IMG/VR virus record: IMGVR_UViG_3300042274_000333
DNA: 64,000 nucleotides
Source of the DNA: an uncultured virus (IMG/VR IMGVR_UViG_3300042274_000333)
Lineage: Duplodnaviria > Heunggongvirae > Uroviricota > Caudoviricetes
Reading direction: 5' to 3' (one strand)
The position numbers and the translations under genes were made by a program. Below are positions 2,495 to 64,000 of this stretch, one piece after another (the stretch's first letter is position 1; every line of letters starts with the position of its first letter). The notes under the pieces are model-generated. The model was not told the origin of the DNA. It saw nothing but the letters and a program-made list of their open reading frames with translations, and did no database searches.

Positions 2495-3405
2495 CAACTA
2501 CTAATGAAGTGAGAATAGAAACAAGCACATTATGTAATTATAAATGTAAGTTTTGCCCTCATCATACAAAAAGTTTTACCAGAAAAAAAGAAATAATGTC
2601 TTTTGATTTTTTTAAAGAGATTATAGATAAAGTGAAAAAACAAGCACCAGAAATAAGTTACTTAACTATATCTGGATTCGGTGAGTCTACTCTTGACAAA
2701 GGTATTATTGACAAAATTAAATATGCGACTAGTCTAGGATATCATGTATTCTTGCTTACTAATGGCTCAAACCTTACAATAGATTATGTGAATGAATTGT
2801 TTTTTCTTAACGTAGATATAAGAATTTCATTACATACTATAATACCAGAAGAATATGAAGCTATTACAGGCAATAAAAATCTTAAAAGCGTTATTGATAT
2901 TATTGACTATATGATTGCTCACCCCAATAAAACTAATATAACTATTACAGCTGATGTTATAGAAGACAATGAAAAGAACATTGATAAACTCATTAAAAAA
3001 TATAAAGACGATGTTTTATTAGAAGTTTGGAAACCTCATAACTGGGCAAATTGGGGAACTTATAGAGATTACTCTTTAAATAGAAAAAAAACCTGCGGAA
3101 GGCCTAAAAATGGGCCTTTACAAATACAAGTTGATGGAACTGTTAATATGTGTTGTTTTGATTTTAATGGAGAATTATTACTCGGAGATTTAAAAACACA
3201 ATCTCTAGAAGAAATATTTCAGGGTGATATGTTTAATAAAATTTTAGAGCATCATGAAAAAGGAACTATAGATCAATCTACTCTCCTTTGCTCTAAATGC
3301 GACCAGCTGGCTTCTCATACAGGAACAGTATTGTTTAACAGTAAATTTTTAGAAGAGGATAGAGTAGAAAAAGTTTCCTCTACTCATAGAAAGGTGATAG
3401 AATGA
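2491..3405 (+). CDS. Radical SAM/SPASM-twitch protein
   Basis: CNYKCKFC, SGFGES, LTNG, C-terminal CGRP..VDGTVNMCCFD..CSKC. Confidence 0.9.
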   Translation: MTTTNEVRIETSTLCNYKCKFCPHHTKSFTRKKEIMSFDFFKEIIDKVKKQAPEISYLTISGFGESTLDKGIIDKIKYATSLGYHVFLLTNGSNLTIDYVNELFFLNVDIRISLHTIIPEEYEAITGNKNLKSVIDIIDYMIAHPNKTNITITADVIEDNEKNIDKLIKKYKDDVLLEVWKPHNWANWGTYRDYSLNRKKTCGRPKNGPLQIQVDGTVNMCCFDFNGELLLGDLKTQSLEEIFQGDMFNKILEHHEKGTIDQSTLLCSKCDQLASHTGTVLFNSKFLEEDRVEKVSSTHRKVIE

Positions 3406-5950: not shown

Positions 5951-5986
5951 TGTAAAGATACTAATGTAAATGTAAGGAGATTTAAT

Positions 5987-52857: not shown

Positions 52858-53036
52858 CCGAGTTTATGAAAAACCTTGATGAAATTTTACATACAGACAA
52901 GGAAGGTAACGGTACATATGAGAACCGTTGTGTTGTGTGTGGTAACATCTTTTTTGGACACAAGCGAGACACCACTTGCAAAAGGTGTATTTTGAAAAGT
53001 GAGTTATCACCAGAACTGCAATCAGTGAAGGAGTAA
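52854..53036 (+). CDS. Small Zn-finger protein
   Basis: CVVC..CKRC. Confidence 0.55.
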   Translation: MTEFMKNLDEILHTDKEGNGTYENRCVVCGNIFFGHKRDTTCKRCILKSELSPELQSVKE

Positions 53037-53041
53037 AAAGA

Positions 53042-53245
53042 ATGGATGGACAAACACTTTTAATGATTGCTATTTGGCTTATTACTGGCATCATTGGAGC
53101 TGTAATGAGTGAAAAGAGAGGAAGAAGCACTGTTGGTGGATTTTGCCTTGGGTTTTTTCTAGGTCTTATAGGTATTGCTATTATTGCATTAGTTGGAGAA
53201 AAAAAGCAAGAAGTTATAACAACTGATAAGATTGATAGGGTGTAA
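53042..53245 (+). CDS. Small membrane protein
   Basis: TM-KRGRS-TM. Confidence 0.7.
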   Translation: MDGQTLLMIAIWLITGIIGAVMSEKRGRSTVGGFCLGFFLGLIGIAIIALVGEKKQEVITTDKIDRV

Positions 53246-53413
53246 AATATAGTTGACAAAAAACTAAAATTTTTATATAATAGAGGAAAGATAAACAATA
53301 TGATTGCTGTATATGTAGTTCTTTATTTGGCTTTGATTTGTTGCATTTGCTTCTTTTTTAAGGGATGCGATAATAAATGACTCTTTTTTAATAAGGTGGT
53401 AAGATATAAATAT

Positions 53414-53551
53414 ATGAAGAAAGATTTAAGACCGTTGTATAAAAATTTAAGTAATCTCTCAACATCCGAAGATAGGAACAGGGGTGGAATAGGCGTATCT
53501 TAATAAGATGCGATTAATATATACCGCCCCTGCGAAAACAGGGGTTTTTTT
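53414..53551 (+). promoter_or_regulatory. Attenuator-like leader upstream of tRNA array
   Basis: 29-codon leader ORF; alternative antiterminator/terminator stems sharing CCCCTG. Confidence 0.5.
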
Positions 53552-53554
53552 ATT

Positions 53555-53626
53555 GCCTTCCTAGTATAATGGTCATTACAAGACTGTGGTATGGTTTAGA
53601 TAGCGGTTCGATTCCGCTGGAAGGCT
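53555..53626 (+). tRNA. tRNA-Thr(GGT)
   Basis: GCCTTCC/GGAAGGC; AGACT-GTGGTAT-GGTTT; TTCGATT. Confidence 0.75.
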
Positions 53627-53630
53627 TAAT

Positions 53631-53715
53631 GGATAGTTGGCAGAGTGGTCTATTGCACTTGTCTAGAAAACAAGAGGATGTAAAAGTTCCAGAGGTTCAA
53701 ATCCTCTACTATCCG
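53631..53715 (+). tRNA. tRNA-Ser(AGA)
   Basis: CTTGT-CTAGAAA-ACAAG; long variable arm; G73. Confidence 0.9.
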
Positions 53716-53741
53716 TATTAAATTGTAAAGGAGAACGTAAA

Positions 53742-54602
53742 ATGAGCCATTTTGTTGTATTAGCTTTTGGTGAAAATGTTGATAGAATGCTTGAACCGTA
53801 TTATGAAGGCATTGAAGTAGATGAATATTATGTCGGTGATGTTTCAGAAGAAGAAAAAGACGATTTTATAGAATACTATAAAGAACATCTTGAAAAAGAA
53901 GGGCGTCCTTTTCAAAGCGGATTAAGTAAAGAAGAAGAAATGGAAACTCTTTATAAAGAGTTTGGCATGGATTGGAATAGAGATAGCTGGAGAGTAGAAG
54001 GCGGAATATGGTGCAAGTATTCTACTTATAACCCTCTTTCAAAATGGGACTGGTATACTATTGGGGGAAGATTTGAAGATTTCTTTAAGCTAAAACCAGA
54101 TGCCTATACTAAACCAGTATTAACTATTTCAGATATTGATTTCTTTGGCAAAGCAGAGGAAAATAAAAAGAAAGCAGAGGAAGATTGGGAAAACGTTAAT
54201 AAAGTTTTTAACGAGGCAAATACTGGAAACTTTAAATCTTGGAAAGAAATTTTAGAAATGGAAAATCTTACCATAGATAAACAGAGAGTATTATACCATA
54301 AACAGCCAGAAGTAGAGGCTTACATGAAATATCTTGAAGAAGATAGCTACATGGCTTTCTATGAAAAACTTGAAGATTATTTAGTCAGCAAAGAAGAGTT
54401 TGTTGATGCAAGAATTTATGGTGGAGTTGTTCCTTATGCTTATGTAAGTGAAAAAACTGGTTGGAGAGAAAAGGGAGAAATGGGTTGGTTTGGAATGTCT
54501 AATGACAAATATTCTGATAAAGAATGGTTCAAAGAGTTTATGGAGTTTATAACTTCTTTGCCATTAGATACGCCAGTTTCAATAGTAGATTGCCATATTT
54601 AA
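53742..54602 (+). CDS. Phage hypothetical protein (YNP.SKWDWY.IGGR; VDCHI)
   Basis: Long ORF, AAGGAG RBS. Confidence 0.8.
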   Translation: MSHFVVLAFGENVDRMLEPYYEGIEVDEYYVGDVSEEEKDDFIEYYKEHLEKEGRPFQSGLSKEEEMETLYKEFGMDWNRDSWRVEGGIWCKYSTYNPLSKWDWYTIGGRFEDFFKLKPDAYTKPVLTISDIDFFGKAEENKKKAEEDWENVNKVFNEANTGNFKSWKEILEMENLTIDKQRVLYHKQPEVEAYMKYLEEDSYMAFYEKLEDYLVSKEEFVDARIYGGVVPYAYVSEKTGWREKGEMGWFGMSNDKYSDKEWFKEFMEFITSLPLDTPVSIVDCHI

Positions 54603-54613
54603 TATGGCACAAT

Positions 54614-54701
54614 GGAAGCGCAACCCGATAGCTGGCGACGGGAACTGTCTTGAAAACAGCCGAGCGTAACTGCCTTGTGGGTTCGACCCCCACCGCTTCC
54701 G
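54614..54701 (+). tRNA. tRNA-Ser(TGA)
   Basis: GGAAGCG/CGCTTCC; loop CTTGAAA; long variable arm. Confidence 0.88.
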
Positions 54702-54720
54702 TAAAAAAGGATACGTAAAA

Positions 54721-55098
54721 ATGGTTAAACAAGTGATTGTAGTAAGAAAAGACTTAAACATGAGAAAAGGGAAAATTGGAGCACAATGCGCCCACGCTTC
54801 TATGAAGGTGTTTTTTGATATAGCAAAAGTAAAAAACAATGTAATGGAAATTCCCTTGAACGATGAAATGGATGAATGGTTTAATGGTATTTTTACTAAA
54901 ATTGTAGTATATGTAGAAAGTGAAGAAGAATTGCTTTCTGTATATGATGAAGCAAAAAAAGCAGGGTTGCCTTGTTCTTTGATTAAAGACAATGGGCTTA
55001 CAGAATTTAATGGAGTTCATACTTATACCTGTGTAGGTATCGGTCCTGCCGAAGCAAGCAAGATAGATGCCATAACAGGACACTTAAGATTATATTGA
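54721..55098 (+). CDS. pth2: Peptidyl-tRNA hydrolase type 2
   Basis: KQVIVVRKDL.M.KGK..AQCAHAS, TKIVV, DNGLTEF, GIGP. Confidence 0.93.
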   Translation: MVKQVIVVRKDLNMRKGKIGAQCAHASMKVFFDIAKVKNNVMEIPLNDEMDEWFNGIFTKIVVYVESEEELLSVYDEAKKAGLPCSLIKDNGLTEFNGVHTYTCVGIGPAEASKIDAITGHLRLY

Positions 55099-55314
55099 CA
55101 AAAAACTAAAAAATTGATATAATAAGAGAGTAAGGTGGGAAAATGAAAGAACATGAAGTTGCGTTGAGAATTTCCGATGAAAAGTATGTAGATTCTTTAA
55201 TCATTGCCTTGGTTCGTCAGGGATATGAAGTATATTATAATAGTGAAGAAGGTAAAGGGCTTGTATGTTTTAAAACATATGATGAAGAAGTAACAGAAAT
55301 TAAGAGATAACAAT

Positions 55315-55386
55315 GGTCGCTTAGTCTAGTGGTAAGGACATGAGGTTTTCATCCTCAAATCAGGGGTTCAATTCCCCTAGCGACTA
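55315..55386 (+). tRNA. tRNA-Glu(TTC)
   Basis: TGAGG-TTTTCAT-CCTCA. Confidence 0.92.
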
Positions 55387-55391
55387 ACAAT

Positions 55392-55463
55392 GGTCTATTC
55401 GTCTAATGGTAGGACGTGAGGTTTTCATCCTTAAGATGGCGGGTTCAATTCCCCTATAGACTA
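55392..55463 (+). tRNA. tRNA-Glu(TTC), second divergent copy
   Basis: TGAGG-TTTTCAT-CCTTA. Confidence 0.85.
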
Positions 55464-55479
55464 TAAAAAAGGAGTTTGT

Positions 55480-55635
55480 ATGGAACTACCAGATGTAAAG
55501 AAACATTATATTGTTTCTATGGTTAAAAGTGTATTAAGGATAGCAGGGTATTTATTTCTGTTTAAAGTGGCACCAGTGGCTTCTGTAATTTTGATAGTAT
55601 CAGAAATTTTAGGAGTGTTAGAAGAAAACGTATAA
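55480..55635 (+). CDS. Small membrane protein
   Basis: AAGGAG RBS, 51 aa. Confidence 0.55.
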   Translation: MELPDVKKHYIVSMVKSVLRIAGYLFLFKVAPVASVILIVSEILGVLEENV

Positions 55636-55640
55636 CATAT

Positions 55641-55724
55641 GCTCTGGTGGTGGAATAGGTAGACACAACAGGCTTAAAACCTGTTGCCCGTTAGGGCGTG
55701 AGGGTTCAAGTCCCTCCCAGAGTA
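55641..55724 (+). tRNA. tRNA-Leu(TAA)
   Basis: ACAGG-CTTAAAA-CCTGT; variable arm. Confidence 0.93.
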
Positions 55725-55739
55725 AAGTGGGGTTTTATC

Positions 55740-56099
55740 TTGAAAAATGATGGTCTTTTTATTGCTGGTGTTTTAACTGTAATTTTTTTGTTATTATCAT
55801 TTACTTTCAGTTATAATAAAAATGATGAATATGATTTACGTAAAAATATAAACAATAATATAGTAGAAAATATTAAAACCAGTTTAAATGCATCAATAAA
55901 AAATGAATTAAAATTAAGTGATTGCTATGTTCAAAATGTAAAAATATCAGAAGAATCAAACGTTTATACAGCAGTTGTCACAATTAAACATTTTTTAAGA
56001 AAGAAAAATACAATTGTAATATATGTTAAAAAAAATGATAGAGATGAAGCATATTATTATCCAGGAGAAATAAAAGACTGGTATTACAAATTAGATTGA
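55740..56099 (+). CDS. Membrane-anchored hypothetical protein
   Basis: TTG start after tRNA; N-terminal TM. Confidence 0.55.
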   Translation: MKNDGLFIAGVLTVIFLLLSFTFSYNKNDEYDLRKNINNNIVENIKTSLNASIKNELKLSDCYVQNVKISEESNVYTAVVTIKHFLRKKNTIVIYVKKNDRDEAYYYPGEIKDWYYKLD

Positions 56100-56103
56100 A
56101 AAC

Positions 56104-56185
56104 GCTCCTGTGTTGGAATTGGTATACATCAGTGTCTTAGAAACATTGGCCGAGAGGATTGGGAGTTCAACTCTCCCCAGGAGCA
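56104..56185 (+). tRNA. tRNA-Leu(TAG)
   Basis: AGTGT-CTTAGAA-ACATT. Confidence 0.9.
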
Positions 56186-56233
56186 TTACTTTTATATATT
56201 GGTAAAGATATTAATATAAAAGGATTATTACCT

Positions 56234-56707
56234 ATGCCAAAAACAAAATATACAAAAGAGATTTTAAAACCAATAGTAGAAAAAAATATCAGTATTGCTG
56301 GTGTGTTAAAAGATCTTAACTTAAAAAATACTGGTGGAAATTATTCACATATAAAAAAATGTATTAAAAATGCAGAAATAAGTATGGATCATTTTTTAGG
56401 TCAATCTCACAGCAAGGGAAAACAAGGATATAATAAGCATACAAAAGAATCATTTATTGAAAAAGTTTTAAAGGAAGGAACTGGTTGGAGAAATCAAGCA
56501 ATAAAAGAAAAACTATTAGAATTCAATTTAAAAGAAGATAAATGTGAAGTTTGTGGTCAAAGTAGCTTATGGAATGGAAAAAAATTATCATTACAAATAG
56601 ACCATATTAATGGAATATTTAATGACAATAGATTTGAAAATTTGAGAATAATATGTCCTAACTGTCATTCTCAAACCGATACTTTTAGTTCTAAAATTAG
56701 GAACTAG
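56234..56707 (+). CDS. HNH endonuclease
   Basis: CEVCG..LQIDHING..NDNR.ENL..ICPNCHSQT. Confidence 0.92.
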   Translation: MPKTKYTKEILKPIVEKNISIAGVLKDLNLKNTGGNYSHIKKCIKNAEISMDHFLGQSHSKGKQGYNKHTKESFIEKVLKEGTGWRNQAIKEKLLEFNLKEDKCEVCGQSSLWNGKKLSLQIDHINGIFNDNRFENLRIICPNCHSQTDTFSSKIRN

Positions 56708-56745
56708 TGCCGTAAGGAGTGAGGGTTCAAGTCCCTCCCAGAGTA
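56697..56745 (+). pseudogene. Orphan 3' half of tRNA-Leu (T-TAG-GA-ACTAG...CCAGAGT-A)
   Basis: Anticodon through acceptor 3' strand present, 5' half absent. Confidence 0.75.
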
Positions 56746-56748
56746 AAT

Positions 56749-56832
56749 GCTTCAGTGGTGTAATATTGGTAAACACGCTAGTTTAAGGAACTAGTGCCGT
56801 AAGGCGTGAGAGTTCAAATCTCTCCTGGAGCA
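56749..56832 (+). tRNA. tRNA-Leu(AAG)
   Basis: CTAGT-TTAAGGA-ACTAG. Confidence 0.9.
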
Positions 56833-57024
56833 AAAATTAGTTAAGTGATGTCAGGAAGAGCCTTTAAATACAACAGTTAAAGGAAATGCCAGAAAAGCAC
56901 ACCTTTTAAGGACGTCCGTGCAGAGGTTTGAATCCTACTCTTGATATTAAGTCATTTAACAAATTTTATAGAATGAGGATAAAAATAATTACGTAATAAA
57001 ATATCCAAGTTCTATATATTTTAT

Positions 57025-57108
57025 GCTTCAGTGGTGTAATATTGGTAAACACGCTAGTTTAAGGAACTAGTGCCTTCGGGTGTGAGGGTTCAAATCCCTC
57101 TTGAAGCA
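57025..57108 (+). tRNA. tRNA-Leu(AAG), second copy
   Basis: 5' part identical to 56749 copy; varied V/T arms. Confidence 0.9.
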
Positions 57109-57114
57109 AATAAT

Positions 57115-57196
57115 GTTTCGGTGGTGGAAACGGTAGACACGGTAGCCTCAAAAGCTATTGCCGCAAGGCGTGAGGGTTCAAGTCCCTCTCGGAGCA
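57115..57196 (+). tRNA. tRNA-Leu(CAA)
   Basis: GTAGC-CTCAAAA-GCTAT. Confidence 0.92.
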
Positions 57197-57260
57197 AAAA
57201 ATAATTGTTTAAAAATTAAAAAAATTCTATAATAAAGTATAGTCAATAAGGAGATTTTAA

Positions 57261-57587
57261 ATGATTATTAAAATGGGAAGTCCAGATAATTTTGTACATG
57301 CTTTTTTTAAAAACGAAATGTATAATGAAGATTATCCATTGGATTTTGGCGTATATTTTTCAAAAGAAAAGCCTATTAGTTCAAATGATGATACTTGTTT
57401 AGAGTATGAGTTTGATACAGAAAAAGATTATATTCTAACATCTACTGATGCATCTATAATCTGGATTTGGAAGGATAAAAAGCCGACTATGATAGCAGAT
57501 TATGGATATTTTTGGGAAAAAGGAACTGCTATTGATTTTGAAGCTAAGGAAACTGGGTTTTATGTAGTTTGTGGCGAAAAATATTAA
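57261..57587 (+). CDS. Hypothetical protein
   Basis: AAGGAG RBS. Confidence 0.7.
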   Translation: MIIKMGSPDNFVHAFFKNEMYNEDYPLDFGVYFSKEKPISSNDDTCLEYEFDTEKDYILTSTDASIIWIWKDKKPTMIADYGYFWEKGTAIDFEAKETGFYVVCGEKY

Positions 57588-57605
57588 ACAAATGGAGGTA
57601 GCAAA

Positions 57606-58157
57606 ATGAAATTAGAAGAAATTCTTGAAAGCATAGAACAAAAAGCCAAAGATTTTGCTACCGAAAAACACAAAGGGCAAAAAAGAAAATTTGAAGGAGT
57701 CCCTTATGTGGAGCATCCTAAAAGAGTTGCTGAAATTGTAAGAAAATACAAAGACAGTCACAAAATTGATGAACTTATTTCTTCTGCTTTACTTCATGAT
57801 ACTATTGAAGATACAAATACTACAGAAGAAGATTTAGAGAAATTGTTTGGTGGTTTAGTGGCTTCTTTAGTAAAAGAACTTACCTCTGATGGAGAAGAAA
57901 TAAAGAAGAAAGGCAAAGAGACGTATCTTTCTGATAAAATGATTGGTATGTCTGATTGGGCTTTAGTTATAAAACTAGCAGACAGACTTGACAACGTAAG
58001 TGATTTAGAAGTGGCTGATAAATATTTTAGAGATAGATACATTAGAGAAACAGTATTTATCCTTAATAAACTTGAATCAGGAAGAAAACTTTCAGGCACG
58101 CAACAAAAGCTGGTTGATGTTATTAGGGGTAAGATAAAAGAGTTGACAAAAAACTAA
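57606..58157 (+). CDS. HD-domain small alarmone hydrolase-like (Mesh1/SpoT HD)
   Basis: H.GQ.RK..PY..HP, ALLHDTIEDT, LV.ELT.D, IKLADRLDN. Confidence 0.9.
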   Translation: MKLEEILESIEQKAKDFATEKHKGQKRKFEGVPYVEHPKRVAEIVRKYKDSHKIDELISSALLHDTIEDTNTTEEDLEKLFGGLVASLVKELTSDGEEIKKKGKETYLSDKMIGMSDWALVIKLADRLDNVSDLEVADKYFRDRYIRETVFILNKLESGRKLSGTQQKLVDVIRGKIKELTKN

Positions 58158-58288
58158 AAAAATTGTATAATAAAAGAGTAAGATGGGGAAGCGTTAGGAT
58201 AACACTTATGAGGGGACTGACCGAGTAACGTTCAGGTTTAAGTAGATGACAAGTCCTGCTAACGCTTTCCGATTAAAATAAAAAATAT

Positions 58289-58360
58289 GGTGGTATGGTA
58301 TAATGGCTATTACGGGAGATTGTCGATCTCCAAATCGGGGTTCAATTCCCCGTATCATCG
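58289..58360 (+). tRNA. tRNA-Asp(GTC)
   Basis: GGAGA-TTGTCGA-TCTCC. Confidence 0.9.
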
Positions 58361-58365
58361 GAAAC

Positions 58366-58447
58366 GCCTTCTTAATCCTCTAAAGACGAGGGGCAGACTG
58401 TAAATCTGTTGCAACACGCTGGGTGGGTGCGATACCCACAGAGGGCA
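58366..58447 (+). tRNA. tRNA-Tyr(GTA), atypical D/T loops
   Basis: GCAGA-CTGTAAA-TCTGT; T-loop TGCGATA. Confidence 0.75.
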
Positions 58448-58588
58448 AATGTCTCGGATAGCAAAAGACGTAAAACAAACCCGCTAGTGACACACCGGAA
58501 TGCGAAGACGGTGCGTAAGACCGACTCGTTGCAACGAGGGATTATATGTATCGGTATAATACAGGTTGAATTCCGACCTGTATATTAT

Positions 58589-58660
58589 GGTCAGGTAGCA
58601 AATCGGTTTTGCAACACACTTTTAATGTGTCCCAGGTGGGTTCAACTCCCACCCTGATCA
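58589..58660 (+). tRNA. tRNA-Lys(TTT)
   Basis: ACACA-CTTTTAA-TGTGT. Confidence 0.88.
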
Positions 58661-58663
58661 AAT

Positions 58664-58749
58664 GGAGTAGAGAAGCATAGGGGATATGCGCTTGCCTGCT
58701 AAGCAAGAGGTTATCATAGATGGCAGAGGGTCGGAACCTCCTTACTCCG
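58664..58749 (+). tRNA. tRNA-Ser(GCT), atypical T loop
   Basis: CTTGC-CTGCTAA-GCAAG; long variable arm; G73. Confidence 0.75.
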
Positions 58750-58921
58750 TAAATATCATTTTGATTTGTTAGTTGGTTTATGGGACTATACGAGAGACCG
58801 ACTATATGTGGCTGAAATAGTCTTCAGCGTAGTAAGCAGATCTTACTCATTTCAAAAATGATATAAATTTCAGTGTGTAACTTGATTTGAAAATACTTGC
58901 TTTTCAAATCATATATATATT

Positions 58922-59338
58922 ATGGAAAAAACACAATGCTTAAAATGCGGGGAATGGAAGAGCGTAGAAGATTTTTCAAAAAATAAAAGAAAAAGAGGCT
59001 ATCACAATTGGTGTAAATCTTGTGTTAAAGAATATGACCACGCTAGATATAAAGAAAATAAAGAAAAAATATCTAAACAAAAAAAAGACCGCAGAAAGTC
59101 AATAAAAGAATGGTTTTTTGACTATAAAAGTTTTTTAAAATGTGAGATTTGTGGAGAAAGCCATATAGCAACATTAGACTTTCATCATTTGGATAAAACT
59201 TCAAAAGATTTTAATGTTAGTAATGCAGCTAAGCAAGGGTTTAGCAAAAGAAGAATTCTTGAAGAAACGAATAAATGCATAATTCTGTGTGCAAATTGCC
59301 ATAGAAAATTGCATTATGAAGAAAACAACTCTCAGTAG
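58922..59338 (+). CDS. HNH endonuclease with N-terminal Zn ribbon
   Basis: CLKC..CKSC; CEICG..LDFHH..LCANCHRKLH. Confidence 0.9.
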   Translation: MEKTQCLKCGEWKSVEDFSKNKRKRGYHNWCKSCVKEYDHARYKENKEKISKQKKDRRKSIKEWFFDYKSFLKCEICGESHIATLDFHHLDKTSKDFNVSNAAKQGFSKRRILEETNKCIILCANCHRKLHYEENNSQ

Positions 59339-59402
59339 GTCAGTGGTAGACCGCCTGTTTTGGGAACAGGAGATTTCGCAGGTTCGAATCCTGTCTGGGA
59401 GA
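59329..59402 (+). tRNA. tRNA-Pro(TGG)
   Basis: CTCTCAG/CTGGGAG; CCTGT-TTTGGGA-ACAGG. Confidence 0.92.
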
Positions 59403-59469
59403 TATAAGTTAGCAAACTATTGACGTATCAAGTCGGTAGAAATTCTAGAATTTTTGCTAACTTTTCAAT

Positions 59470-59541
59470 GACTTCGTAGCTCAACGGTAGAGCATCTGGC
59501 TGTTAACCAGAGGGTTGGGGGTTCAAGTCCCTCCGTTGTCG
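59470..59541 (+). tRNA. tRNA-Asn(GTT)
   Basis: TCTGG-CTGTTAA-CCAGA; two U.U pairs in acceptor. Confidence 0.88.
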
Positions 59542-59575
59542 TATTGTAGTTTAAATAAAAAAAGAAGGTATAAAA

Positions 59576-60838
59576 ATGAAAGAAATTGACATCGTAAAAA
59601 AACTACAAGAAAATGGATTTGAAGCCTACTTCGTAGGTGGATGCGTAAGAGATATGATTTTAAGGAAACCTCCAAAAGATATTGACGTAGTGACTTCCGC
59701 TACTCCTGAAGAGGTTTCAAAAATTTTTGAAACCTCTTTTTTTGTGGGAGAAAGTTTCGGCATATCTCTCGTAAGCGGGGTTGAGGTAGCTACTTTTAGA
59801 ACTGAAAGTTCTTATGACGGTAGAAAGCCTAAAAGTGTTCATTTTAGTTCTTCTCTTGAAGAAGACTCTAACAGAAGGGACTTTACTTTTAATGCATTAT
59901 ATTTTGACCCGATTAAAGATAAGATTATAGACCTTCATTATGGAATTGAAGATTTAGAAACTGGAACTGTAAGGTTTATTGGAAAAGCAGAAGATAGAAT
60001 TCTAGAAGACCATTTAAGAATTCTACGTGCTATAAGATTTGCTTCTGTTTACGGATTTACTCTTGATAAAGAGGCTGTTTCTGCCATTAAAGAAAACAAA
60101 CATTTACTTCATAGCATTAGTGCAGAAAGAATAACGGCAGAGATAAAGAAAACAGGAAATAAATTCCATAAATTTGTAGAATTATTGTATGACTTACATG
60201 TTATAGATGAAATTTTTCCGTATGCTTCTGCTTTGAAAAATGTTCCACAGGATGCTGTTTGGCACCCAGAGGGAGATACATGGATTCATACTTTGAAGGT
60301 TATCAAAAACCTACAGACTGATGATTTTGTATTGAACTTGGCTGGACTTTTTCATGACTTTGGAAAGTTAACTACCACTAAAAATGAAGATGGGAAAATA
60401 ACTTCTAAAGGTCATGAAGCTGATTCTGTTATGCTTGCTCTTCCTATATTAAAAATGCTTAAAGTTTCCAACAAGGAAGCAGAAGATATTCTATGGTTAG
60501 TTGAAAATCATATGAAAGTAAAGCATTTTCTTGAAATGAAAAAAAGTAAGAGAATAGCTTTAGCAAAAGACGAAAGAGCAGTAAAACTTGCAGAACTTTC
60601 TGTTGCAGACAGCATGACTGAAAAAGCATTAGAGAAGAACACTGAAATAAAAGATGCCATACTGGAACTTCGTAAGGATGAAAAAACCTTTGTAGCTCCT
60701 TTGGTAACTGGAAATGATTTGATAGCTTTGGGAATGAAGCCTGGAAAAGTATTCAAAATAATACTTGATGATTTATTTGATAAACAGATAAACAAAGGCA
60801 TTACGTCAAAAGAAGAATTGTTAGAATATGTATTATAA
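59576..60838 (+). CDS. cca: CCA tRNA nucleotidyltransferase with HD domain
   Basis: VGGCVRD, DID, EVATFR, EDSNRRDFTFNAL, EDHLRILRAIRF, ERI, HPEG..H, HD. Confidence 0.93.
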   Translation: MKEIDIVKKLQENGFEAYFVGGCVRDMILRKPPKDIDVVTSATPEEVSKIFETSFFVGESFGISLVSGVEVATFRTESSYDGRKPKSVHFSSSLEEDSNRRDFTFNALYFDPIKDKIIDLHYGIEDLETGTVRFIGKAEDRILEDHLRILRAIRFASVYGFTLDKEAVSAIKENKHLLHSISAERITAEIKKTGNKFHKFVELLYDLHVIDEIFPYASALKNVPQDAVWHPEGDTWIHTLKVIKNLQTDDFVLNLAGLFHDFGKLTTTKNEDGKITSKGHEADSVMLALPILKMLKVSNKEAEDILWLVENHMKVKHFLEMKKSKRIALAKDERAVKLAELSVADSMTEKALEKNTEIKDAILELRKDEKTFVAPLVTGNDLIALGMKPGKVFKIILDDLFDKQINKGITSKEELLEYVL

Positions 60839-60883
60839 TTTATTATTCATGTATAGTAATTGATTTTACTATACATGATATAT

Positions 60884-60919
60884 GGGTGCTTGGTGTAATG
60901 GTAACATAAGAGTCTCCAA
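60884..60919 (+). pseudogene. 5' half of split tRNA-Trp(CCA)
   Basis: GGGTGCT acceptor, D arm, AGAGT-CT-CCA-A then interrupted. Confidence 0.8.
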
Positions 60920-60945
60920 CTGTAAAGATATATTTGGAGACTAAC

Positions 60946-61368
60946 ATGGAAACAAAAATTTGTGGAACTTGTAAAAAAGAATTGCCATTAACTTATTTTA
61001 GGAAAAATATAAGAAGAAAAGATGGATACCAAACAGATTGTATTAAGTGCAGAAAAGAATACAATAAAAATCATTATATAAAAAATAAAGAACTTTATAA
61101 AAAAAGAGCAAGTAAAAGAACAAAAGAATTAAGGCTTTGGTTCAAAGAATACAAAAAAGAATTAAAATGTGAGATTTGCGGAGATTGCAGATTTTATGTT
61201 TTAGAATTTCATCATAAAGATCCTACAGATAAAAAAGAGTCAGTTTCACAATTGATAAGACTTTCTTCTAAAAAATATTTATTAGAGGAAATAGATAAAT
61301 GTTCTGTTTTGTGTTCTAATTGTCATAAAGAACTGCACTATCTTGAAAATAATGGTGGCGTATGTTAA
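60946..61368 (+). CDS. HNH endonuclease with N-terminal Zn ribbon (paralogue of 58922)
   Basis: GGAG RBS; CGTC..CIKC; CEICG..LEFHH..LCSNCHKELH. Confidence 0.9.
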   Translation: METKICGTCKKELPLTYFRKNIRRKDGYQTDCIKCRKEYNKNHYIKNKELYKKRASKRTKELRLWFKEYKKELKCEICGDCRFYVLEFHHKDPTDKKESVSQLIRLSSKKYLLEEIDKCSVLCSNCHKELHYLENNGGVC

Positions 61369-61426
61369 ATGGTAAACTCTTTCGCTCCAAACGAAAGTTA
61401 TGTGAGTTCAAATCTTACCGCCATCG
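61354..61426 (+). tRNA. tRNA-Trp(CCA)
   Basis: GGTGGCG/CGCCATC; TTTCG-CTCCAAA-CGAAA; G73. Confidence 0.88.
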
Positions 61427-61435
61427 AATAAAGTT

Positions 61436-61460
61436 AAGGGTTCGATCCCTTTAGCACTCG
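61436..61460 (+). pseudogene. 3' remnant (T arm + acceptor) of split tRNA-Trp
   Basis: AAGGG-TTCGATC-CCTTT-AGCACTC-G; AGCACTC pairs with GGGTGCT at 60884. Confidence 0.8.
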
Positions 61461-61506
61461 TTACGTTTCTCATGCTGAAAAGAATTTACTTCATAAGGGG
61501 AGAAAT

Positions 61507-61704
61507 ATGCTATTTCGTCATAATGAAAGAAAGAAAAGGATAGAAGTTTATAAACTTCTACCTTGTGGGGAAGAGCGTTTGGTAAAAGTGAAGGTAGGTG
61601 TTATTCGCTTATTTGATGAAGAGAAAGTATTTCTCCCAAGAGAAGGGTCAAGGCTTACGCCAGAGAATCTTATTGATATTGCAGGGTATATTTTGGAAGA
61701 ATAA
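61507..61704 (+). CDS. Hypothetical protein
   Basis: GGGGAG RBS. Confidence 0.6.
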   Translation: MLFRHNERKKRIEVYKLLPCGEERLVKVKVGVIRLFDEEKVFLPREGSRLTPENLIDIAGYILEE

Positions 61705-61759
61705 ATGTTGACAAGAAATTAAAAAAGGTATATACTTTCTCTATAAAGAGGGAAGTAAA

Positions 61760-62209
61760 ATGGAATGGTTAGATTTATTTGATAATAATGTAGAGAGAAT
61801 CTGCATATCCCACACACGTTTGGGAACCTATTATGTTTCCCATCTTGTGATTTATGGTAGTGAAGTTTCTGCATGGGGAATGTTAAGTGAGAATGAGCAT
61901 ATTTCTTTTGAAGAATATGTAGATGAATACGATTCTTATGAAGGCATACTTACTATGAAAGGAATGGCAGAAGAAGATTTTTTAGAGAGAACTGGAACCC
62001 CTGAAAATTATAGGTGTAGTTTTTGCTGTGCAGGAAAAGAGAAAAAGTATTTTGAATATACCACAGAAGAAGGCACAACACTAACAATGGCTATAAACGG
62101 AGATTGTTCTTGCCTTAATTTAAAAGAAACTTCAAAAGAAGGGATTTTAACAGAGGAATCTTGCCACCCTATAAGGTTTTGTCCTATCTGTGGAGCAAAG
62201 TTAAGTTAA
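61760..62209 (+). CDS. Hypothetical protein with Zn ribbon
   Basis: CSFC..IRFCPICG. Confidence 0.7.
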   Translation: MEWLDLFDNNVERICISHTRLGTYYVSHLVIYGSEVSAWGMLSENEHISFEEYVDEYDSYEGILTMKGMAEEDFLERTGTPENYRCSFCCAGKEKKYFEYTTEEGTTLTMAINGDCSCLNLKETSKEGILTEESCHPIRFCPICGAKLS

Positions 62210-62210
62210 T

Positions 62211-62284
62211 GCCTGTTTGGGCTAATGGATTAAGCCAGTAGTCTTCGAAACTATTAAGTGGGGGTTCGAATCCCTCAACAGGCG
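62211..62284 (+). tRNA. tRNA-Arg(TCG)
   Basis: GTAGT-CTTCGAA-ACTAT. Confidence 0.9.
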
Positions 62285-62290
62285 AAGTAT

Positions 62291-62362
62291 GCCCGAATGG
62301 TGTAATGGATAACATGTGAGTTTCCTAAACTTTTGATAAAGGTTCAATTCCTTTTTCGGGTA
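62291..62362 (+). tRNA. tRNA-Arg(CCT)
   Basis: GAGT-TTCCTAA-ACTT. Confidence 0.85.
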
Positions 62363-62373
62363 AAGAGGTATTT

Positions 62374-62643
62374 ATGTTTATTTTTGGCATTCGTTTTGAA
62401 GATGTAGAAAGAAGATACGGTATAAAAAGAGAAAATTTTCAAGTTGAAAATATGGGAGAAATGAAAGATCTCGGTATTTTCATAAACGATGATGTTCTTG
62501 GATGGTATTCAGATTCTCGGTATTGGTTTAGGGGTAGTAATATCACAGTAGTAAAAAGGTTTATAGCTGATTTCATAAATGAAAATTTTATAATGAAAGC
62601 TGAATGTATAAAAGACAATGATATAAAGTTGATAATGATATGA
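62374..62643 (+). CDS. Hypothetical protein
   Basis: GAGG RBS. Confidence 0.6.
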   Translation: MFIFGIRFEDVERRYGIKRENFQVENMGEMKDLGIFINDDVLGWYSDSRYWFRGSNITVVKRFIADFINENFIMKAECIKDNDIKLIMI

Positions 62644-63008
62644 GTACTTTTTCTTTTAAACATATAAAAACCCCAGGGTGGGCAAAAAGCAGTAACGATA
62701 TTTATTTTCTCGTTTTAGACGAAAATAATAATAAATTTGGCTATATCGGATTACAAAGTATGGATTTTTCAAGGGGAATATGTGGAAACCTTTGCTATAA
62801 AACTCATGTAAAATACAGAGGGCAAAAAAAGTCAAAGTATTATGTCAAACAATTTATAGAAGAATGTATGTTTGATATAGATATTTGGAGAGCATATACC
62901 AGTGAAGAAAACATAGCAAGTATAAAAATATTAGAATATTGTGGATTTATTGTTGAAGATATTTCAAATGGTAAGATATATTACAAGTTAAGGAAGTTTG
63001 ATTATTAA
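62640..63008 (+). CDS. GNAT acetyltransferase (RimJ/RimL-like)
   Basis: KYRGQ; ENIASIKILEYCGF. Confidence 0.75.
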   Translation: MSTFSFKHIKTPGWAKSSNDIYFLVLDENNNKFGYIGLQSMDFSRGICGNLCYKTHVKYRGQKKSKYYVKQFIEECMFDIDIWRAYTSEENIASIKILEYCGFIVEDISNGKIYYKLRKFDY

Positions 63009-63384
63009 TATGTATAAAGAAAGATTTATATTTCATAAAGAAGTAAAAGAAATTAGAGAAAATTCTATTGATGATGAACATTTTTTAGACAATCTTCAAG
63101 AATATTTTAATGATTATATAGATGAAGCACTTGAAAAAACCGGAAAAGCAGATGAATATTATAACGAAGGTTTTGAAGATGGAAAAGATGAAATGGAAGA
63201 CCATATAGAAGAAGAGTGTCAAAACTCTTATAATGAAGGTCTTAAAGATGGAGTACGTAATTTTTTAAAAGGGTTTAAAAAGTATACAGATGAAATATCA
63301 TCTTCTGTAGAAAAAGCTAGAAAATATCTTATAGAAACAGGCATATATACAGAAAATGGTGAAATAAGCGAAGAATATAAATAG
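62998..63384 (+). CDS. Acidic hypothetical protein (YNEG..DG repeats)
   Basis: ORF. Confidence 0.65.
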   Translation: MIINMYKERFIFHKEVKEIRENSIDDEHFLDNLQEYFNDYIDEALEKTGKADEYYNEGFEDGKDEMEDHIEEECQNSYNEGLKDGVRNFLKGFKKYTDEISSSVEKARKYLIETGIYTENGEISEEYK

Positions 63385-63389
63385 AACTT

Positions 63390-63462
63390 GTCCGTATAGT
63401 GTAATGGATTAGCACAAGACTCTTCTAAAGTTTTAGTATAGGTTCGAATCCTATTATGGACA
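63390..63462 (+). tRNA. tRNA-Arg(TCT)
   Basis: AGACT-CTTCTAA-AGTTT. Confidence 0.92.
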
Positions 63463-63465
63463 TAT

Positions 63466-63550
63466 GGGTAGTTAGGTAAGTGGTTAAGCCGACGGTCTGC
63501 AAAATCGTTCAATCCTTTTTAGGACGAGGGTTCAAATCCCTCACTACCCT
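63466..63550 (+). tRNA. tRNA-Cys(GCA) with long variable arm
   Basis: GGGTAGT/ACTACCC, U73; ACGGT-CTGCAAA-ATCGT. Confidence 0.85.
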
Positions 63551-63713
63551 TAACTTTGGTTGACAAAAAAGTAAAAATTTTGTATAATAAGAGAGTAAGT
63601 TAGGCGGTATATTGCCTTACATTCTAACGATAGAACTAACAGTACCTAATGGATAAAGCTGGTTTTAGTTAAGTGGAATAAAAAAATATACATTGTTGCA
63701 GTATTGAGTTCAA

Positions 63714-63786
63714 GGGCAGTTAGCAAAGCGGTTGTTGCAAAAGACTCTTAATCTTTCCTAGGTGGGTTCGACACCCACACTGCTCA
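63714..63786 (+). tRNA. tRNA-Lys(CTT)
   Basis: AAAGA-CTCTTAA-TCTTT. Confidence 0.88.
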
Positions 63787-64000
63787 ACAAAAGAAAACCT
63801 TAAAAGTTTTCTCTCGTATAAGAGTTATTTTAAAGTTATTGGTTTCTTTAAAAAAACCTACGCTCGCCTGTACAGAACGTTTAGCATATCAAGTGTAGAG
63901 CACCCCTTATAATATTAGTGGATATGCCTTGTTGAACGTTAGGGTTACTTCTCCTAACTTCTACTCGTAAATATAAGGCAAAGAAGGTGTCTTTTCTTAG

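Follow-up and report, generated by a model that had tools for sequence, protein, structure and literature searches.

Free-standing homing endonuclease genes are a known component of phage tRNA arrays, and the closest described case to the one reported here is SegB of phages T4 and T6, a GIY-YIG homing endonuclease that is encoded in the tRNA cluster of T-even phages, recognises and cuts tRNA genes, is missing from close relatives and takes flanking tRNA genes along (PMC2330249). The association of SegB with tRNAs across many phages has been published as well (PMC13096335). Here we describe a cassette in a stretch of 64,000 nucleotides (nt) from an uncultured virus of the Caudoviricetes (IMG/VR record IMGVR_UViG_3300042274_000333; the whole stretch is called the window in the following), in which a resident tRNA-Trp(CCA) gene is split by an HNH endonuclease gene (HNH_Trp) that is accompanied by an intact tRNA-Trp(CCA), the spare. 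The cassette is of the same known kind as SegB, and what appears to be new is the combination of a split tRNA gene with a spare of the same anticodon. Like SegB, the window gene is free-standing in a phage tRNA array, is absent from some close relatives and has a hairpin at its ribosome-binding site (RBS) together with a predicted promoter. It differs in its nuclease fold, which is HNH and not GIY-YIG, so that it would be SegB-like in its working but is not a SegB member. Moreover, SegB is located between tRNA genes and cuts at their 3' ends (T-loop motif), whereas the window cassette lies inside a tRNA gene, which it breaks, and is accompanied by a same-anticodon spare.

The endonucleases of group I introns in tRNA genes are another point of reference; I-Ssp6803I, for example, is the endonuclease of a tRNA-fMet intron. 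With such anticodon-loop introns, of which the comparison locus L149 is an example, the window cassette shares the insertion in the anticodon loop, an open reading frame (ORF) in the insert and the existence of empty and filled alleles, but it is without ribozyme, its exons are incomplete (7 nt are lost) and a second gene restores the function. Regarding expression, an RBS-sequestering hairpin combined with an internal late promoter has been described for I-TevI, I-TevII, I-TevIII and segB of T4 and for mobE of phage Aeh1, and in the case of I-TevI, SegB and mobE the long early transcripts are translationally silent, in contrast to those from the internal late promoters (PMC2988022). Compared with this published outline, HNH_Trp and a further endonuclease gene of the window, HNH_Leu, likewise have a hairpin that covers the Shine-Dalgarno (SD) sequence and a putative promoter, which would give transcripts without the 5' arm; the differences are that the window promoter is a recurrent motif only, and that at the Trp site the 5' arm is formed by what remains of the broken gene's anticodon arm. 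Furthermore, HNH genes in the tRNA arrays of mycobacteriophages have been proposed to generate diversity of the tRNA repertoire (Pope et al. 2014, cited by PMC5966550, PMC6409571 and PMC7589089), and our locus is comparable in its HNH genes embedded in a phage tRNA array and in the idea that they drive tRNA gene turnover. Endonuclease genes are also found splitting protein-coding genes, the so-called 'fractured genes' (PMC2677866), and mobE is situated inside nrdA of Aeh1 (PMC2988022). These cases have in common with the window a homing endonuclease gene within a conserved gene without intron or intein; the pieces of fractured genes still cooperate, however, whereas those of tRNA-Trp no longer function and are made up for by a spare copy. 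A full-text literature search outside subscription papers and Pope et al. 2014 revealed neither a description of a tRNA-splitting endonuclease cassette with a same-anticodon spare nor one of endonuclease ORFs ending inside the next tRNA.

The split tRNA-Trp gene and its empty counterpart

The locus is composed of the following features, the last of which is the left flank that it has in common with the empty allele.

60884..60919, + strand: 5' part of the resident tRNA-Trp(CCA), nt 1-37, read from the sequence; 36 of 36 positions identical to the intact tRNA-Trp of comparison locus L093
60920..61438, + strand: inserted cassette, 519 nt, delimited by the alignment of the window with L093 and by a joint in a run X10 contig; 13 nt stand there in the empty alleles
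60946..61368, + strand: HNH endonuclease gene, 140 aa, apparently intact, from ATG 60946 to TAA 61368; phrog_2255 'HNH endonuclease', E 7e-34
61354..61427, + strand: spare tRNA-Trp(CCA), discriminator G73; ARAGORN 61353-61427, Rfam 61354-61426 with 49.3 bits
61433..61460, + strand: 3' part of the resident tRNA-Trp, with variable-loop remnant, T arm (61436-52), 3' acceptor strand (61453-59) and discriminator (61460)
59576..60838, + strand: CCA-adding enzyme gene; Pfam PolyA_pol, 1.1e-32

The resident gene breaks off within its anticodon arm. Positions 60884-60919 read GGGTGCT / TG / GTGT-AATGGTA-ACAT / A / AGAGT / CTCCAA, i.e. the 5' acceptor strand, the D arm, the 5' strand AGAGT of the anticodon stem and the loop up to A37 with the anticodon CCA at 60916-60918, and reading on beyond 60919 revealed no complementary 3' strand of the anticodon stem. 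The remaining part contains the T arm AAGGG TTCGATC CCTTT (61436-61452), the acceptor strand AGCACTC (61453-59), whose 7/7 positions pair with GGGTGCT (one as G-U), and the discriminator G at 61460. The same pair was found by a strict split-tRNA detector, whose criteria are an orphan T arm and acceptor strand and, upstream of these, a D arm and a 5' acceptor strand complementary to the orphan one.

The uninterrupted counterpart was identified in L093, a contig of 1681 nt that was found by searching JGI metagenomes with the neighbouring CCA enzyme (L-numbers denote comparison loci). L093 carries the CCA enzyme (97% protein identity), an intact tRNA-Trp(CCA) at 1193-1265 and the same downstream ORFs, and its flanks are near-identical to those of the window; the tRNA-Trp of the modelled empty allele is called by ARAGORN. 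In addition, contigs from four metagenome runs that hold part of the window (X6, X7, X8 and X10) were compared with it, window parts without contig cover in a single run being uninformative. A contig of X10 joins 60919 to 61439 via 13 letters and then follows 61439-61926 with 6 differences. The filled form is present in the other three runs: contigs of X6 and X7 run across the left junction with no difference from the window, and X8 has a contig of 4029 nt that spans 60878-63183 (78 differences, ~96.6% identity). Since X8 is also filled at a divergence of ~3.4%, presence or absence of the cassette does not follow divergence. By these comparisons the cassette is an insertion relative to the intact allele of close relatives, which starts after nt 37 of the old gene. 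The right junction falls within 61433-61438, because GTTAAG of the window resembles GATAGA of L093. Compared with L093, ~7 nt of the old gene (nt 38-44, among them the entire 3' strand of the anticodon stem) are lost; hence, the old parts are unable to yield a tRNA, spliced or not, the resident gene is dead as judged from its missing strand, and the empty form is not a precise excision product of the filled one. A possible operator at the junction was also considered and discarded, because the promoter region that follows the junction shares, by eye, only 6/13 positions with the 13 nt of the empty allele, which was too weak. In IMG/VR, no match to the exact two-part pattern of the intact old tRNA-Trp and no relatives of the window CCA enzyme were found.

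In an alignment of 42 family sequences, the product of HNH_Trp has each of the 18 invariant columns, among them four CxxC pairs, HH and N..H, which together with the phrog_2255 match assigns it a homing-endonuclease fold. Its best PHROG matches are all HNH or endonuclease VII, with no GIY-YIG catalytic domain among them. The Pfam HNH model scores below threshold (E 6.2), and among solved structures only McrA was matched, weakly and in its HNH motif (E 0.0014). Like a free-standing homing endonuclease gene, HNH_Trp is present in some alleles (window, X6, X7, X8) and absent from others (L093, X10), and it lies outside any self-splicing intron or intein: ORF and spare tRNA fill the insert, and no Rfam intron family matches it. 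An Rfam search at E<=1 over 53000-64000 yielded no family other than tRNA-type ones, and the RF00028 ribozyme core was not seen there; the same search detects RF00028 in the comparison loci L131 and L145.

The spare is canonical, and the window has no other intact tRNA-Trp. The last 15 nt of the HNH ORF, which encode the C-terminus and the stop, double as the first 15 nt of the spare, with TAA as nt 13-15 of the tRNA. The spare is a divergent gene, which agrees with the old one at 43/69 aligned positions; the loops are alike and both have G73, while all four stems differ. With 58% identity it is no closer to the old gene than to tRNA-Trp of unrelated phages (50-70%). As a speculation, RNase P processing of the passenger tRNA would strip the stop codon from the HNH message.

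A preliminary description of this stretch had proposed a tRNA-Trp(CCA) split by an HNH gene with its own intact tRNA-Trp, and sequence reading, ARAGORN and Rfam confirmed this arrangement at the coordinates it gave; the 15-nt overlap of HNH gene and spare as well as the matching old T arm and acceptor strand could be read directly. Its proposal of a splicing-free insertion that destroyed the old gene, with loss of the 3' anticodon strand, holds too, as uninterrupted alleles exist in L093 and run X10 and ~7 nt are missing relative to the former. The statement that the element supplies an isoacceptor is only half right: an intact, divergent tRNA-Trp is indeed supplied, but the term is wrong, because old and spare tRNA both have the anticodon CCA.

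Control signals and the other HNH genes of the array

Three HNH genes exist in the 64-kb window (HNH_Leu, HNH_Pro and HNH_Trp), all of them inside the tRNA array, and in the contig comparison the relatives differ from the window at all 3 sites. The control signals and the two further cassettes are as follows.

60911..60942, + strand: Trp hairpin; 5' arm AGTCTCCAA (60911-19) from the old anticodon arm, 3' arm TTGGAGACT (60934-42) in the insert
60922..60932, + strand: promoter-like motif GTAAAGATATA in the hairpin loop
56104..56746, + strand: Leu cassette; tRNA-Leu(TAG) 56104-185, hairpin, HNH_Leu 56234-56707, 3' part of a second tRNA-Leu(TAG) 56696-56746
56189-97 / 56214-22, + strand: Leu hairpin CTTTTATAT / ATATAAAAG with GTAAAGATAT in the loop
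58922..59402, + strand: Pro cassette; HNH_Pro 58922-59338, tRNA-Pro(TGG) 59329-59402

The two arms of the Trp hairpin are perfect 9-nt complements separated by a 14-nt loop, and the 3' arm covers the SD sequence GGAG at 60936-39. The RNA fold of 60884-60960 reaches -17.8 kcal/mol (z -2.85; 3/200 shuffles as good), so that a stable stem over the SD/start region as in the T4-type control is present. This complementarity needs an explanation, since the 3' arm belongs to the insert and the 5' arm to the target gene; it may stem from a pre-existing cassette hairpin, the 5' arm of which provided microhomology at the left junction, from later adaptation, or from a by-product of repair. HNH_Leu and HNH_Trp are alike in having the motif in the loop of a 9-bp hairpin with its 3' arm over the SD. 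The preliminary description had noted that the old anticodon arm pairs with the HNH RBS, with an AAGATA motif in the loop; this hairpin and its promoter-like loop motif are real, and the design is repeated at an unrelated HNH gene. Among the IMG/VR relatives, stems over the start are longer in HNH genes (n=25, mean 7.2 bp) than in the remaining ORFs of these loci (n=261, mean 5.7; Mann-Whitney p 6e-6), a comparison in which the control starts were the first ATG per ORF and the control stems may therefore be understated. In locus L003, an 11-bp hairpin (CATACTTTCGA / TCGAAAGTATG; 2659-2712 and 3270-3340) was observed over the ATG of an HNH gene, whose 3' end runs into a tRNA fragment consisting of anticodon arm and T arm.

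The motif GTAAAGATA(C/T)T (GTAAAGATAYT, <=1 mismatch) is over-represented in the window, with 18 copies against 7.6 expected, a number that 0/100 shuffles reach. Exact copies at 5952 and 15583 follow terminator-like hairpins and precede long ORFs by 28-35 nt, and the copies at 56202 and 60922 are placed 24-32 nt before HNH_Leu and HNH_Trp. From this distribution, the recurrent motif is probably a phage promoter element; as to its timing class, no informative PHROG was obtained for the ORFs that the other copies precede. An extended form, tttNtttG(T/A)AAAGATA(C/T)T, was noted at 5952, 8026, 15583, 56202 and 60922, after terminator-like hairpins and 24-35 nt before ORFs.

The endonuclease of the Leu cassette (phrog_10822) is unrelated to the Trp family. 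Preceded by an intact tRNA-Leu(TAG), HNH_Leu extends into the 3' part of a second tRNA-Leu(TAG) and ends there; this part starts at the anticodon loop, and its last 28 nt (56719-56746) equal the 3' end of tRNA-Leu(TAA) at 55698-55725. A contig of X8 is without ~55727-56748, the segment with ORF133, tRNA-Leu(TAG) and HNH_Leu, which could represent an empty site or a deletion between the 28-nt perfect direct repeats (T arm plus acceptor). In contrast to HNH_Leu, HNH_Pro is a paralogue of HNH_Trp (E 1e-30), and its stop TAG forms nt 8-10 of tRNA-Pro. The 653 nt at 58752-59404 (leader, HNH_Pro, tRNA-Pro) are replaced in X8 and X10 by 82 other letters, which are probably a different resident tRNA.

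Relatives of the cassettes and competing explanations

Relatives of the Trp/Pro HNH family were collected as 77 unique ORFs in 90 IMG/VR loci, and 46/77 occur in loci with tRNAs. Members of the family usually reside in a spacer that separates two tRNA genes and not within such a gene. A tRNA follows within +50 nt of the ORF in 27/77, and in 21/77 the next tRNA starts within the ORF's 3' end, with an overlap of 10 nt in 10 cases (the stop being U8-A9-G10) and of 15 nt in 5 (stop at nt 13-15); the overlap is longer where neither frame meets a stop. Such overlaps were noted in L013-L020, L025, L028, L036, L046, L049, L053, L075 and L082 as well as in the window at 59329-59338 and 61354-61368. A cultured example is crAss001, where tRNA-Gly, the HNH gene Gp8 and tRNA-Gly follow each other with an annotated overlap. 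In phage wV8 (L092), a 'tRNA-OTHER' pseudogene at 1413-1483 with a tRNA-Trp(CCA) anticodon arm ends 14 nt before the HNH gene gp051, and tRNA-Trp fragments are also found directly upstream of related HNH genes in L011 and L045. The idea that the Trp/Pro HNH lineage tracks tRNA type was abandoned, because the HNH tree is without identity-specific clades.

The full layout recurs in L157, an unrelated contig with two adjacent split tRNA genes (1188-1760 and 1970-2700), each with a nuclease and a spare. One consists of a 5' part, a spare tRNA-Gly(GCC), a Leu-type HNH gene and the T arm plus acceptor; in the other, the 5' part is followed by a Phage_endo_I-like nuclease (Pfam 37.2 bits), the ORF of which ends inside a spare tRNA-Phe(GAA), and then by the T arm plus acceptor. 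As their anticodons are lost, the identity of the broken L157 genes can be suggested from resemblance only. The family of HNH_Leu is specific with regard to tRNA identity: 67/70 unique relatives occur in loci with tRNAs, and 17/36 of the directly downstream tRNAs are Leu compared with a background share of 17% (p 2e-5, uncorrected for relatedness). Matches to Intron_gpI (Rfam) are located next to HNH_Leu-type genes in L131 (1695-1882) and L145 (1749-1951). Moreover, L149 has an HNH_Leu relative inside a tRNA-Leu(UAA) (1240-1992) that is split after ..GGGACTT and continues with the 3' exon AAAATCC.., with a group-I-like core sequence after the HNH ORF, and looks like an ORF-bearing tRNA-Leu(UAA) intron. 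As a separate observation, tRNA-like genes with ~55-70 extra nt between 5' part and T arm, not called by ARAGORN, start at 327 and 3055 of L035, at 2664 of L051 and at 293 of L127; they may hold small insertions or introns.

For the Trp locus, we consider it probable that a free-standing HNH homing-endonuclease cassette has settled inside the anticodon arm of the resident tRNA-Trp gene and brought a passenger tRNA-Trp(CCA) with it, in the order promoter-like motif, RBS hairpin, HNH ORF and the passenger into which the ORF runs. The HNH protein would cleave the intact tRNA-Trp gene of co-infecting relatives near the anticodon arm, and the break would be repaired from the filled allele, for which the old halves and the flanks could act as homology arms. 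The cassette may thereby spread as is the case for an intron-encoded endonuclease, with the damage made good by the spare gene and not by splicing, and the spare would evade cutting through its different stems. In read-through transcripts, the leftover anticodon arm is expected to pair with the SD and to block HNH translation, and transcripts starting at the motif in the hairpin loop would permit it. To our knowledge, homing endonuclease genes are thought to survive within essential conserved genes only in self-splicing introns or inteins and otherwise between genes; the window locus would represent a third solution for an RNA gene, which is to break the gene and to bring a working copy.

Several observations weigh against this interpretation. 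The target, the cut site and the immunity of the spare are inferred from the DNA letters. The junctions, with a 7-nt loss and no clean duplication, fit a one-off imprecise repair as well as a homing site. A donor lineage of the spare was not found, the best identity being 70% among the 15 distinct tRNA-Trp of the loci, and the spare has no exact 26-mer match in IMG/VR. The strict split-tRNA detector gave 11 hits over the window array and 175 loci, of which only 3 have the full layout, namely the window and L157 twice. Same-amino-acid tRNAs flank HNH genes in 7/26 cases compared with 26/191 plain neighbour pairs (p 0.085, rows not independent), and orphan T arms near HNH ends (3/78 and 2/70) are not in excess over a background of ~3-4% per 150 nt. 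Finally, in the HNH tree (79 rows, quick method; 33/76 inner branches unresolved) there are no tRNA-identity clades except near-copies associated with Gly.

Part of these points would also be expected if the arrangement were an accidental scar, i.e. if, when an unrelated break in tRNA-Trp was repaired through microhomology, a normally intergenic unit of HNH gene and tRNA had been taken up on a single occasion, with AGTCTCCAA as a 9-nt microhomology to an existing hairpin arm; tRNA-Trp would then not be the target and the layout would be without function. The usual location of the Trp/Pro HNH family between tRNAs, where it abuts the downstream one, the 7 nt lost at the junction and the lack of a significant enrichment of same-identity tRNAs are compatible with such an event, and the Leu hairpin, of which both arms belong to the variable segment, shows that a cassette can come with a complete hairpin. 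However, broken gene and spare also agree in the Leu(TAG) cassette of the window and twice in L157, with different nucleases, L011, L045 and phage wV8 have tRNA-Trp fragments or genes immediately before related HNH genes, and the filled allele has been kept in a relative that is ~3% diverged, for which reasons we regard the accident as rather unlikely. An assembly artefact or a chimeric contig might be suspected for a window from metagenome-type data with five runs flagged as possible sources, but it is practically negligible, because contigs of X6, X7 and X8 carry the filled form and independently cover both of its junctions, while X10 and L093 give the empty form.

The cassette could also be what remains of an ORF-bearing group I intron of a tRNA anticodon loop, which kept its endonuclease but lost its ribozyme once a second tRNA had made splicing dispensable. 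Its insertion after nt 37 of the anticodon loop would be in line with this origin, as would the ties of HNH_Leu relatives to group I introns (L149, L131 and L145) and the 17/36 Leu tRNAs downstream of that family. Such a decay is very unlikely, though, considering that Rfam gave no group I signal in the window region at E<=1, that HNH_Trp is from the other family, phrog_2255, for which no intron context was seen, and that there is no room for a ribozyme, with 26 nt before the ORF in the insert and the spare plus ~6-11 nt after it. Still less credible is a functional split or intron-containing gene, the old parts of which would be joined by splicing or an RNA ligase into a working tRNA-Trp. The 7/7 pairing of the acceptor strands and the intact T and D arms would permit it, but the halves are incomplete, as nt 38-44 with the whole 3' anticodon-stem strand are absent in comparison with L093; furthermore, there is no ribozyme according to Rfam, no bulge-helix-bulge-like pairing was seen at the junctions by eye, and an intact tRNA-Trp is situated inside the insert.

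Beyond the single locus, the homing cassette that we favour for the Trp site can be extended to a more far-reaching and tentative proposal, which we hold to be possible but doubtful. Endonuclease plus spare-tRNA cassettes would form a distinct and widespread class of mobile elements, which sit without ribozyme in the anticodon arms of same-anticodon tRNAs and on which different nuclease folds (HNH phrog_2255, HNH phrog_10822, Phage_endo_I-like) have converged; their expression would be gated by pairing of the leftover arm with the SD and by a stop codon inside the passenger tRNA, RNase P thus giving a non-stop mRNA, and phage tRNA genes would be continuously replaced by divergent copies. If so, the divergent tRNA copies could also help phages to evade host tRNA-targeting nucleases. 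The preliminary description had seen a general system in the Leu and Pro cases; this is borne out in so far as both sites vary between relatives and the layout recurs in L157, but the usual site of the Trp/Pro family is between tRNA genes. Likewise, the survey that it proposed for half-tRNA, HNH gene and same-anticodon tRNA found the full layout in the window and twice in L157, which are only 3/11 detector hits. Its suggestion that HNH cassettes diversify phage tRNAs may apply.

The filled and empty alleles form a natural pair with near-identical flanks that is unusually clean, and because this pair is available, cutting of the empty allele versus the spare can be addressed directly from the sequences. 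Moreover, the locus offers a concrete mechanism for the turnover and the patchwork make-up of phage tRNA arrays, and it accounts for 'tRNA pseudogenes' and half-tRNAs beside HNH genes in annotated phages. It also implies a warning for annotation, since endonuclease ORFs of the Trp/Pro HNH family often end inside the next tRNA gene.

Setting of the tRNA array

The window DNA, which is AT-rich (G+C 32%), behaves like that of a large uncultured phage, and the metagenome runs containing the stretch are from wastewater, landfill, sludge and manure. A DNA search of the phage collection gave one match only, of 151 nt, inside the HNH gene and in an uncultured 636-kb phage. Nineteen tRNA genes, all on the + strand, are called by ARAGORN between 53.5 and 63.8 kb, and a gene with an HD domain and the gene of the CCA-adding enzyme (59576-60838) are located amid this array. 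Between the stop of the latter and the 5' part of the old tRNA-Trp (60839-60877), X8 has 468 other letters, which may be a further insertion. Another variable site is 57261-57587, an ORF of 108 aa after tRNA-Leu(CAA), which is not present in the contigs of X8 and X10 (joint 57198->57594). The genes of tRNA-Asp and tRNA-Lys are flanked by two non-coding, G+C-richer blocks with visible stem potential (58187-58287 and 58362-58587), which are without Rfam match and are both missed out by one X8 contig. Finally, two tRNA-like stretches at 58666-58747 and 54614-54700 are below the Rfam thresholds, and ARAGORN does not call them; the score as tRNA is 22.3 bits for one, which has a long variable arm and an anticodon-like loop with GCT, and the other reaches 34.7 bits as tRNA-Sec.

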